The position numbers were made by a program. 64,000 nucleotides of DNA from an uncultured Alphaproteobacteria bacterium (lineage in GTDB: Bacteria; Pseudomonadota; Alphaproteobacteria; RF32; CAG-239), in assembly GCA_944393665.1 (NCBI GenBank), contig CALYAX010000004.1, forward strand, positions 13,479-77,478, written 5' to 3'. Below are positions 49,901 through 52,900 of this stretch, piece by piece. Positions within the stretch are counted from its first letter, which is position 1, and the number at the start of each line of letters is the position of its first letter.

Positions 49901-52900
49901 TATCCGGATTAACCTGAAATCTCCGGATTAACCTGACTGCGGCCAGGAAGCACCGCCCAGCCTTTCTGAAGCCGGGAATTTTTGGTCTAACTTTGCTGCC
50001 GTCAAAAGCAGCCGGAACAGCATTTAAAAAATTTTCAAATAAATCTTGCAAATAAGCAAAGCTTAATTTAATCTAAAGACAGCTGCAATATTTGCAGTTA
50101 CGGCAAAGAGCACCTGCCGGGGATTATGGGATTCCAGCCATAGGGCACTCCGTGACACCGGAGTGCGGGAGGAATGCAGGCCTTCAAATGTCTGTATTGC
50201 ACATAAAGCCCGACCAAATTGGTCGCGGAGGAAACCTGACTGAGAGATCAGGCACGCAGTTTCTGAGTTCTGTGACATCTTAACCTTCGGATGGATAATA
50301 GATCCCGGCCGCTTTTTTACCCATAGGAAAGCGGCCTCTCTTTTTATTCAGAATCCGGAGGAAAGCATGAAATATTTCATCTTTTTGATTTGCTTGTTTT
50401 TAAACAATTGCGCCACTTTGAGCGGCTACCGGGACGGCCAGCTGGAACCGGGCAAAACGCGGCGCCTGGAAAATGTTCTTCACCCCAACGTCGCCGAAGA
50501 ATTTTTATCGGTTATGCCTGCGGCTTGTAATCAACCTGTTCGAGCCGGGCGGTAAACTTTCCGGCACCGGGATTACAGACATAAGCGCCGATACGGATTT
50601 CCGCTTCGTTAGCAATCAGGCGGAACTGCCGCAGTTTGATAAATCTTTCGCCGTCGGGAGAATAAGACAACAGCATATCTCCGCCTTTGCGCCTGAGCCG
50701 GTACCATACTTTTTGCAAGGGATAAGGCAGCGGAACCGCCGCCCAGTCAGAATGTCCGCGCTGAGTAACAACCGAACCGATTTCCTCCGGTACTGGCGCC
50801 TGATCCATCAAAGAGGCCTTCACCCAGTTAAAACTGTCGAGCCGGGCCATAATTCCCGCCTGGGCAAACGGTAAAAACCTTTCGGCGGCAGTGCAGACTG
50901 TTAATGTAAAATCCCCTCTGGCAGGCGTATAAAAAAAATGGCCGTTGTCTTTATTAAAACGATGAGCCATATTCGCCCAAAAATCCGTTTCAGGCAGGGA
51001 ATCGACCAACAGCCCGTCTTCCTGAAAGCGGACATTTTCCGGTTCGTTATACCAGCTGAAGTCTTTGAGGGCGTCAAGCAGCATTTTTTTATAAGTTCCT
51101 TATACTTTCGTCCGGAAGATCACGCAGGGCCTCTTCCAATTTGGAGCTGGCGGTTTTCGGCGCGATAATCTTCAGAGTGATAATCTGATCGCCGGCGGTT
51201 GCCTTACTCTTGATACCCTTACCTTTCAGGCGCAATTTTTCCCCGCTGGAGGCATAAGGGGGAATATTGACATTAACCTTGCCGGTAATGGTCGGCACCG
51301 TCACCTTGGCCCCCAAAACAGCTTCTTTCATCGTAATTGGCAGTTCCATAAGGATATTGCTGCCTTCGGCGCTGAAATAGGGGTGTTTATCAACATTGAG
51401 GGTTATCAGCACATCGCCGGAGGAACCGCCGTTCGGGCTGGGAGAACCCAGGCCTTTCAAGCGCAAGGTCTGGCCGTCAGTGGTTCCGGCGGGAATTTTG
51501 ACATTGATGTTTTTGCCGTTGATATTAACGGTCTTTTCATCACCGCGGGCGGCGGCCAAAAAATCCAGACGCATGGTATAGTTAATATCTTCGCCTTTGC
51601 GGGGCCGGCGCGACGCGCCGCCAAACCCGCCCTGAAAACCGCTGCCTCCGGTAAACTGGGAAAAAATATCTTCGCCGAATATTGACGAGAAATCAAAATT
51701 GCTGCCGCCGGCACCCCCGAAAGGATTTTCACCGCCGGTATAGGTATAAGTGCGGTATCCGCCCCCGGGACCGCCGGCTCCGCCGAAACCGGCACCGAAT
51801 CCGGTCGGTTTGCCGTCCGCATCAATTTCGTTGTTGTCGTATTTCTTCCGCTTTTCCTTATCGCCCAAAATATCATAAGCACAGGAAATTTCTTTAAACT
51901 TTTCTGCGGCCTCTTTATTGTCTTTGTTCAAATCGGGGTGGTATTTGCGGGCCAGCTTGCGGTAAGCCGATTTAATTTCGGCCTCGCCGGCGCCTTTGTC
52001 GACCCCTAAAACATGATACAGGTTTTTATTCATATCGCTACTCTTCACAAAAATCGCATTCTTTATGCTAGATATAGGAAGAAATCCGGCTTATTGCAAG
52101 CGGGCGCGGATTAATCATTTGCAGCGCCGCGGCAATAAAATGTTGCCCGGCGGGAATGGTTGGGACGGAGCTGGATATCATGCAGCACTGCCTGGCGGTC
52201 ACCATGATCCTGGCAATAGAGAGCGGCAACGGCCGCCAATTCATCGACACGGATATTTTTATATTCATAAGTTACAAAATTTGACGCTTTTTGAACAACA
52301 GTGGCATTACGGGCAATGCGGTTATAGTCAGGGTTAAATTCCAGTTTCTGTTCGGAAGGAATATTGCAGGCCGACAGTAAAAGCAGCAAGATGCTCAGGG
52401 ATAAAAATTTCATGCATTAGCCTCCCGGGTTTGATTTGATTTGGCTTTGAGAACAACCGAACCGGCTTCCCTGCCCTCTTCAGGCAGCGGGCGGATAATT
52501 TCTTCACCGGCCGCGGTTTTAGCCTCAATGATGATACGGCGGCGGCCGGTCATGCGGGTTAAGGCAGCGCCAAAATCATATTTTTCCATCTTAAAACCTT
52601 TCCTGAGCTATTTTCATCAGTATATCAGCGCTTGGTTAAACAAAGTTTAATCCAGCTCGTTGTAAATTTGCTTTCCGGCCTGAAGCAAAATATTATAGAC
52701 CCGGCGGTTGGTTGAATTTTTGGTGCGGGTATTCTGCAGCTTTTCCATCATGCGGGCCAGTTTTTGGTTAAAACGGCGGTTTTCGCGCAAGGCTTCAATA
52801 TCGCGGAGATTTTCCTCATCATCTATTTTATAGTTTACCACAGCCTTGAGCGTGGCCATGTACTGGGCATCCTGCTGGGCGGCAAACTGGGCCGAGGCCG

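Follow-up and report, generated by a model that had tools for sequence, protein, structure and literature searches.

The stretch of DNA analysed here (the window; 64,000 nt, positions 13,479 to 77,478 of contig CALYAX010000004.1, assembly GCA_944393665.1, from an uncultured alphaproteobacterium of the CAG-239 lineage) carries two copies, X and Y, of a structured leader RNA, each followed on the same strand by a short open reading frame (ORF). Copy X, about 620 nt long, is an insertion restricted to its lineage; it separates engB from DUF1349, two convergent genes. Copy Y precedes a lipoprotein gene (Table 1). An earlier note on this DNA had described the two ORFs as paralogous “TM2-like” lipoprotein genes, X being a short version, that form a duplicated module with their RNAs. 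Both ORFs are present with the lengths and positions given there, and ORF X indeed overlaps the convergent DUF1349 gene by 44 nt. The leaders belong to a large family of RNAs that we interpret as candidate terminator switches.

Table 1. Features of copies X and Y in window coordinates, and further loci of the same genome (C-prefixed coordinates). MFE, minimum free energy.
Feature	Position	Strand	Remarks
X promoter, -35 TTGCAA	50046-50051	+	read from the sequence
X promoter, -10 TAATCT	50069-50074	+	17-nt spacer; promoter overall 50046-50074; read from the sequence
X leader RNA, ~270 nt	50080-50350	+	5' hairpins, long-range closing helix, internal hairpins, terminator, U-tract; MFE z-score -4.6
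X intrinsic terminator	50307-50336	+	terminator scan; U-tract directly 3'
Shine-Dalgarno GGAGG of ORF X	50357-50361	+	5 nt 5' of ATG; read from the sequence
ORF X, 62 aa, ATG start	50367-50555	+	ORF confirmed
ORF X codons 1-37, conserved part	50367-50477	+	signal-peptide-like N-terminus, LNNC box, then YRDxQLExxKT(R/K)RLENV
ORF X tail, unconstrained	50478-50555	+	last 44 nt (50512-50555) antisense to DUF1349 3' end
DUF1349 gene, convergent to ORF X	50512-51084	-	Pfam PF07081, 2.4e-43, 178 of 179 model positions
Y lipoprotein gene, 125 aa	61148-61525	-	lipobox LSAC; unannotated conserved family
Y terminator hairpin	61557-61581	-	terminator scan
Y leader RNA	~61540-61808	-	MFE z-score -8.6
Y promoter	~61814-61842	-	copy Y overall 61540-61842
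Y2	C1:173281		paralogue behind leader
Y3	C1:78399		paralogue behind leader
Y4	C25:12263-12610		paralogue behind leader
Further leader loci (L109-L128), part 1	C19:21159-21331, C23:9955-10092, C2:255-402, C6:44613-44751, C5:8762-8892
Further leader loci (L109-L128), part 2	C1:151153-153474, C2:12907-13034, C3:74135-74249, C6:8958-9072, C8:5309-5433

In copy X, as read from the sequence, a predicted sigma-70 promoter of its own is followed by a leader that folds over about 270 nt and ends in an intrinsic terminator; next come a strong Shine-Dalgarno sequence and the short ORF. Copy Y shares this layout, with a sigma-70-like promoter and, in X and Y alike, the Shine-Dalgarno sequence 20-25 nt beyond the terminator; its paralogues Y2, Y3 and Y4 are built likewise, and the promoter form CTTGCAAAT...TAAnCT is common to Y, Y2 and most members of the leader family. 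The claim that both ORFs stand behind homologous RNA copies ending in intrinsic terminators holds: local alignment of the two leaders scored 44 compared with 18.4 +/- 2.2 in 500 dinucleotide shuffles (z-score ~11), and global alignment 112 compared with 19.4 +/- 6.4 in shuffles. The similarity is concentrated in the promoter, in the 5' domain and at the 3' end. The X leader is homologous to that of Y, but its 3' core has diverged from the family consensus.

BLASTN of the leaders returned no relatives within the genus, so that covariance models were needed. Model R1, built from 16 foreign class-A sequences and no sequence of this genome, covers the 3' core of the leader, i.e. helices P5, P6 and P7 and the terminator; model R2 is a second covariance model of the same core. 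Y scored 46.1 bits with R1 (E 1.9e-11) and 67.3 bits with R2, and the R1 scores of Y2, Y3 and Y4 were 46, 59 and 53 bits. Leaders at the lipoprotein loci fall into three sequence classes with one shared architecture, and R1 recovered classes B and C too. This genome has at least 17 R1 matches at E <= 1e-4, some of them in tandem before another copy, and R1 copies were found in all 25 genus genomes searched, with one to eight in each, whereas the lipoprotein is present in only 9 of 24. The genes behind the leaders encode a 915-aa autotransporter, at least eight XRE-type helix-turn-helix (HTH) proteins, a GT2+GT8 glycosyltransferase, an M16 peptidase and lipoproteins. The proposed duplicated RNA-lipoprotein module is therefore a fair description of the Y type, which has four full-length lipoprotein paralogues in this genome, each behind a leader, and a leader directly upstream of the lipoprotein in at least 61 of 80 species loci; the RNA, however, is not lipoprotein-specific. 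Since its homologues precede unrelated genes, a finding that the earlier note had named as contrary to its proposal, the RNA is better regarded as a general-purpose leader than as a partner of the lipoprotein.

Three side observations concern the distribution of the leaders. Several of the XRE-type HTH proteins behind them are duplicated, and three leader copies lie within 2.3 kb (C1 151153-153474). A weak match to the leader models (R1 18.5 bits, R2 15.8 bits) adjoins a tRNA (38680-38752) at positions 38504-38675 (+) of the window. At locus L050 (2700-2949), the 5' strand of the long-range helix P3 is of the type found in L095 (TGTCTAGTA) and the 3' strand of the type found in L058 (CGTTATGTAT), which leaves the helix broken; this is either a recombinant leader or a chimeric contig of a metagenome-assembled genome (MAG).

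The 3' core of the leader shows covariation. In an Infernal alignment of 53 sequences (A10), pairing holds in 96% of cells, both sides have changed in 27 of 28 pairs, and the covariation score is 0.52 compared with 0.19 in shuffles (none of 500 as high) and at most 0.12 for slid partners, all of these counts being taken from a model-fitted alignment. A cross-class MAFFT alignment (A5), on which RNAalifold recovered only P7 and the terminator, was not used for P5, P6 or the r2:r3 helix described below, as classes A, B and C are out of register in it, with 55-65% of cells paired. One segment of the core, r2 (e.g. GGTCGGGGAG), pairs with another segment, r1, to form hairpin P5, which is 94% paired and has all seven of its pairs changed on both sides. 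The same segment is complementary to a further one, r3, that reaches into the 5' half of the terminator stem. In the copies of class A and of this genome, r2:r3 is paired at 9-10 of 10 positions, and paralogues and species provide several compensated variants (GGTCGGGGAG/CTCCCCGGCC, GGTCGAGATG/CATCTCGACC, GGCCGGAGAG/CTCTCCGGCC, GGCCGGGACG/CGTCCCGGCC, GGTCGGGAAG/CTTCCCGGCC). One strand thus has two exclusive partners, both helices covary, and one of them overlaps an intrinsic terminator, which is the signature of a conditional-termination switch. Inspection also suggested long-range or pseudoknot contacts that would join the P2 loop to a TTTCGAAC-type segment and the P7 loop to the stretch following P2, for which many compensated changes can be seen by eye in the class alignments.

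The position of the genes points to control in cis. A same-strand ORF starts 16-90 nt past the terminator in 19 of the 25 own-genome copies, and the distance from terminator to ATG is mostly 16-50 nt (90 nt in one), probably too short for a promoter, which suggests that these genes are fed by read-through. We consider it probable, at roughly 60%, that the leader is a cis-acting two-state terminator switch, located at X before a short conserved secreted-peptide ORF. In one state, r2:r1 (P5) would leave the terminator free, giving a short terminated RNA and a gene that is off; in the other, r2:r3, which corresponds to the closing stem of a fold of the sRNA-Xcc1 type (see below), would sequester the 5' half of the terminator, giving read-through and a gene that is on. 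Which state is adopted could depend on a small molecule, a protein or the kinetics of transcription.

Selection on copy X can be followed over two time scales. A search of protein databases with ORF X yielded homologues (P0121 and P0122), including one of 74 aa, and contig L160 contains the orthologous engB-X-DUF1349 locus of a diverged lineage, with the overlap between ORF X and DUF1349 retained (73 nt there). Between the two loci, the proportion of differing synonymous sites (pS) is 0.54 in engB and 0.56 in DUF1349. By comparison, the X promoter is 95% identical and the Shine-Dalgarno region (50351-50366) 100% identical, and the RNA shows 27 changes in its 127 unpaired columns and only 5 in its 150 paired columns, every one of them pair-preserving, which bears out in substance the earlier remark that the X leader keeps compensatory pairs. 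Codons 1-37 of ORF X have a pS of 0.71 (16 synonymous changes) and a proportion of differing non-synonymous sites (pN) of 0.113, i.e. pN/pS 0.16; the signal peptide (codons 1-18) has six synonymous changes and no non-synonymous ones. Beyond codon 37, nucleotide identity is 43%, and in L160 a 1-nt deletion and an 8-nt indel shift the frame, resulting in the 74-aa product with an unrelated tail.

Variation among strains was taken from contigs of other gut metagenomes, which drop rare variants, so the single-nucleotide polymorphisms (SNPs) given here are those listed in such contigs. No SNP site falls into the 373 nt from 50032 to 50404, which comprise the promoter, the RNA, the Shine-Dalgarno sequence and 12 codons, compared with 21 distinct sites in the other 528 nt (9 in 49903-50031, 8 in 50405-50506 and 4 in DUF1349); by our own calculation, zero sites in 373 nt would have a chance of ~1e-5 if the 21 sites were spread evenly over 901 nt. 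The non-synonymous SNPs are at codons 20, 24 and 29, which vary between the lineages too, and in the tail (V42G, L47S). A control with SNPs of the Y region was dropped because contigs of the 93%-identical paralogue Y2 confounded the counts. The X leader is thus under structural selection and the first 37 codons of ORF X are under purifying selection, whereas the tail is frameshifted junk: the comparison with L160 and the strain SNPs together show that the leader and a 37-residue N-terminal peptide are both maintained and the tail is not. The earlier suggestion that the RNA matters more than the protein is right about the strong constraint on the leader, but the N-terminal part of the ORF is constrained as well. 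ORF X would accordingly be translated into a short exported or membrane-anchored peptide of which only the first 37 residues are functionally constrained, the remainder probably being read-through into flanking DNA.

Several results weigh against a cis-acting switch. The 3' core of X is at noise level with the covariance models (9.3 bits with R1; 14.4 bits, E 0.06, with R2), like unrelated terminators (its L160 orthologue reached 18.1 bits), and r2:r3 is weakened there to 5+2 of 10 pairs, so that X may no longer switch. Within the species, the SNPs of ORF X are five non-synonymous to three synonymous, a ratio that, taken alone, looks relaxed. The covariation counts, as said, come from a model-fitted alignment; several family members are orphan or tandem copies with no ORF directly behind; and the gene contexts (XRE regulators, autotransporter, glycosyltransferase, lipoproteins) point to no particular ligand. 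A search of RNA runs found no usable run for X or Y: the sole contig marked “RNA?” at X spans 50339-50535, lacks strand information and could be DNA, and the one run listed for Y (kind “?”) gave a single contig, again with no strand information and with ~18 differences, which is probably the paralogue Y2. Finally, a relative that has been studied by experiment, the stand-alone ~88-nt sRNA-Xcc1, was described in print as acting in trans (PMC2996969; Chen 2011, as cited in PMC12189769).

This last point leads to a different view, in which the terminated leader is itself the product, a trans-acting small RNA (sRNA), possibly with a dual function, and the ORFs are secondary or activated by this short RNA, as with IsrK. 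The closest catalogued relative of the leaders, sRNA-Xcc1, is a verified stand-alone RNA of ~88 nt (PMC2996969) and occurs in multiple and tandem copies in Xylella (PMC12189769), and copies at C1:77957, C1:172642, C1:151153 and C3:29632/29883 are orphan or tandem, lacking an ORF directly behind. The X leader is also conserved more tightly than its ORF, and identity between Y and Y2 is 93-100% across promoter, leader and signal peptide, next to mature parts that are synonymously saturated. Yet no conserved single-stranded seed region was identified, both alternative terminator helices covary, which a plain sRNA does not need, and the 19 of 25 copies within 16-90 nt of a same-strand start mostly leave no room for a promoter, so read-through must feed the genes. 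Furthermore, purifying selection acts on the N-terminal part of ORF X as well, so that the conservation of X calls for no action in trans and a role in cis suffices. On balance, we regard this view as unlikely. In the light of the orphan and tandem copies and of what has been published on sRNA-Xcc1, the RNA may have a role in trans, as the earlier note had raised, but none is required.

The origin of copy X can be read from its neighbours. The gene order yidC-engB / DUF1349-cbpA is retained in about 13 of the 30 genus genomes examined, none of which has X between the two pairs, and in eight of them engB and DUF1349 are only 9-33 nt apart with no X-like element between. DUF1349 is thus the ancestral neighbour of engB, and the compact junctions indicate that X is a lineage-specific insertion whose ORF ends by read-through into pre-existing DNA. 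In four genus genomes, the engB/DUF1349 gap is 340-390 nt long and harbours an unrelated membrane ORF of ~57 aa (L134 1626-2005, L135 2137-2527, L137 1126-1506, L156 2137-2477) with its own promoter and terminator, the product of which is a two-helix membrane peptide (MKKILFCLAFLAILAATIYFIF...DDPRFDY); different small-protein cassettes have therefore colonised this junction at least twice.

These data also bear on the idea that X is a decaying relic of a leader-lipoprotein module, its ORF a pseudogene stump and its RNA kept as a terminator or insulator between engB and DUF1349. Compared with Y, X is truncated: the whole conserved core is gone, and the ORF continues into sequence antisense to DUF1349. 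Lineages differ by frameshifts in the tail of X, its strain SNPs are mostly non-synonymous, its 3' RNA core scores at noise level and its LNNC box is not a canonical lipobox. The strain SNPs by themselves would suggest a dead pseudogene, a view that was abandoned in the light of the pN/pS of codons 1-37, where 16 synonymous changes accumulated while the synonymous sites of the neighbouring genes became about half saturated. The promoter and Shine-Dalgarno sequence are conserved, and the RNA changes are in loops or pair-preserving over the whole 270 nt, i.e. beyond the terminator. The eight genomes in which the two genes are separated by 9-33 nt need no such element. A relic is, in our judgement, very unlikely.

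Another explanation has X act on the convergent genes: the leader would gate antisense transcription, the read-through RNA being antisense to DUF1349 and cbpA and acting as a conditional regulator of the convergent operon. The X unit does point into the 3' end of DUF1349, no terminator was mapped after ORF X, the tail of the ORF is unconstrained while the leader is constrained, and the overlap is kept in L160 (73 nt). Riboswitch-gated antisense RNAs have precedents. The constraint on the first 37 codons is left unexplained by this proposal, however, and we consider it improbable, to about the same degree as the relic. The terminator switch in front of a peptide-coding ORF remains the interpretation that we prefer.

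For the X and Y proteins, a relationship past the signal peptide was not borne out. The earlier note had aligned them by eye and advised a profile alignment of both ORFs, but BLASTP gave no alignment of the two at E <= 100, and a hidden Markov model (HMM) of 120 Y-family sequences matched X with 4.8 bits over residues 3-28 only, i.e. the signal peptide plus the first mature residues; hhalign of X with the Y family gave a probability of 37% over residues 1-27. The conserved mature segment of X scored no better than 18-49% of its own shuffles, which indicates that the match between HPNVAEEFLSVMPAACN and SPAAAGALNLLPGGGN is due to chance, and the HPNVAEEFLSVMPAACN part is frameshifted in, and therefore not conserved in, the orthologue L160. 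The X product stops before the hydrophobic core, as had been noted: the core LNLLPGxGNFYL...WP.S..W is absent from X, and no remnant of it was found in any of the six frames of 50300-51100. A long intact X allele was looked for in the 30 genus genomes and in the protein database, and none was found. By the lipobox rule applied here ([LVI][ASTVI][GAS]C after a hydrophobic h-region), the boxes of Y, Y2, Y3 and Y4 (LSAC, LSGC or LTSC) qualify, whereas the putative LNNC box of X breaks the rule with Asn at -1 and -2, yet is identical in L160. Neither Pfam nor NCBIfam has a family for either ORF. The paralogy of the two proteins would thus rest on context and the resemblance of the signal peptides and is not demonstrable from their sequences: X has a short and conserved product, as the description “short version” implied, but cannot be shown to be a version of the Y lipoprotein.

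The Y lipoprotein belongs to a conserved family with the core LNLLPGxGNFYLAsGN...WP.S.LWG.PEA.IDA (family alignment A4). A search with Y found 185 homologues at E <= 1e-3, originating from MAGs of gut and rumen Alphaproteobacteria; none of the best 120 of the 185 has a Pfam domain, and those named are called “hypothetical protein”. NCBIfam gave no family assignment for Y. An AlphaFold2 model of the family (mean predicted local confidence, pLDDT, 70.6) is all-helical, and Foldseek found nothing below E 2 for it in the PDB. The resemblance to TM2 proteins is seen by eye only, as a glycine-rich G-x-G-x-FYL motif followed by a second hydrophobic segment; Y-family proteins differ in having a cleavable lipoprotein signal peptide, and the Pfam TM2 domain (PF05154) was found in 0 of 33 family members at E <= 5 and not in Y at E <= 1. 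Neither the X nor the Y protein is a TM2-domain protein. In sum, the earlier picture has to be corrected: paralogy of the conserved X peptide with the lipoprotein cannot be demonstrated, the term “TM2-like” fits neither protein, and the RNA is not specific to lipoprotein genes.

A remote link may exist between the Y core and the membrane-embedded part of MlaA/VacJ (PF04333; PDB 5nuo chain D), which is likewise a lipoprotein, although the Y protein is half its size. The core lPGfGnfylasGnggdsshylyGflnlltWPisi.lWgi aligns with MlaA 135-172 (LPFYGSFTLR-DEGGDMADGLYPVLSWLTWPMSIgKWAV) at 12 bits (E about 1); in a profile search against PDB sequences the MlaA match had E 0.76, and one family member matched the NCBIfam MlaA model in the same stretch at E 0.094. 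The motif of 38 residues corresponds to Y residues ~57-97 (61235-61357, minus strand). Membership in the MlaA family was rejected, PF04333 being found in none of the members scanned and hhalign with the MlaA of this genome giving a probability of 0.4%, so that the similarity is to be taken as a lead.

Comparison of Y (61526-61850) with Y2 (L014 1460-1841) reveals a sharp boundary: the promoter, the leader and the first 20 codons are 93-100% identical, and past codon 20 nucleotide identity falls abruptly to 60%, with saturated synonymous sites in the mature part (pS 0.675). The few differences within the block are fully compensated helix swaps (TATCGA/TCGATA to TAGTAG/CTACTA and CCACAAA/TTTGTGG to CCGAAAG/CTTTCGG). 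The break suggests that the block from promoter to signal peptide is homogenised or exchanged independently of the mature protein, implying gene conversion or the exchange of a leader/signal-peptide cassette. The long ORF called for thymidine phosphorylase overlaps the Y promoter on the opposite strand with its first 19 codons (61795-61851, +), which are duplicated together with that promoter at Y2 (tblastn 95% identity); the true start of this gene is probably further downstream. At the other end of the Y gene, a 27-nt unit (GCAGCCCCCTATTTCTGCGCGGCGGAA) is repeated five times in tandem with 92% match (61032-61166), overlapping the last codons and the stop codon, and a nearby run of G at 61016 differs in length between strains. 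In another genome of the genus (G003, L025 1444-1660), only the C-terminal ~55 residues of the lipoprotein (SILWGVAEGVVDANKINERE...) are left, with no start codon, as a truncated Y-type remnant.

If the cis-acting switch is real, a single type of RNA switch governs ~20 genes in this 1.7 Mb genome of an uncultured gut alphaproteobacterium, their products being lipoproteins, an autotransporter, a glycosyltransferase and numerous XRE regulators. Among known systems, terminating riboswitches and attenuators resemble the leaders in having a promoter-proximal structured leader with an intrinsic terminator just before the ribosome-binding site, in which one strand has two exclusive covarying partners. 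Many copies per genome, before diverse surface and regulatory genes, are a further likeness, as second-messenger riboswitches are distributed similarly. The leaders differ from riboswitches in that they match no Rfam riboswitch family and in that their tandem and orphan copies have promoters of their own.

At gathering thresholds, Rfam yielded no match for the leaders at all. In a permissive scan, sRNA-Xcc1 (RF02221) matched three copies, L068 with 38.6 bits, Y4 with 38.2 bits and C2:12907 with 36.3 bits, none of which reaches the gathering score of 53, and the X and Y leaders did not match the model at E <= 10. The 3' core of the three copies aligns end to end with model positions 1-87, as a three-way junction made of the closing stem r2:r3, a hairpin with an internal loop of the AAUA...AAAU type and a second hairpin, followed by CaCC-UUUU, and the consensus fold of sRNA-Xcc1 likewise has r2:r3 as its closing stem. 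These sub-threshold matches suggest that the 3' core of the family is distantly related to sRNA-Xcc1. The leaders described here differ in length (~250-270 nt), in an extra 5' domain (P1-P5 and long-range helices) and in an explicit terminator/anti-terminator, and also in their setting, since they precede chromosomal genes (lipoproteins, XRE regulators, autotransporter) of gut Alphaproteobacteria. A Xylella island holds sRNA-Xcc1 five times in tandem (PMC12189769); elsewhere it precedes symE in integron cassettes (bioRxiv 10.1101/2025.06.18.660453) and an ORF6N gene in the APSE phage (PMC7313666). Like the leaders, it is thus multi-copy or tandem and lies upstream of genes in the same orientation. 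As a tentative and rather doubtful extension, X, Y, their ~20 genomic siblings and sRNA-Xcc1 might form one superfamily of signal-responsive terminator switches, through which each genome would co-regulate surface proteins and XRE-type regulators in answer to a single ligand or factor. Termination would set the leader free as a stable RNA, with a possible further action in trans, X being a minimal member with a 37-residue exported peptide. Should the leaders indeed switch in cis, sRNA-Xcc1, as found in integrons, phages and islands, would be more aptly regarded as the core of a switch of this kind than as a classical trans-acting sRNA.

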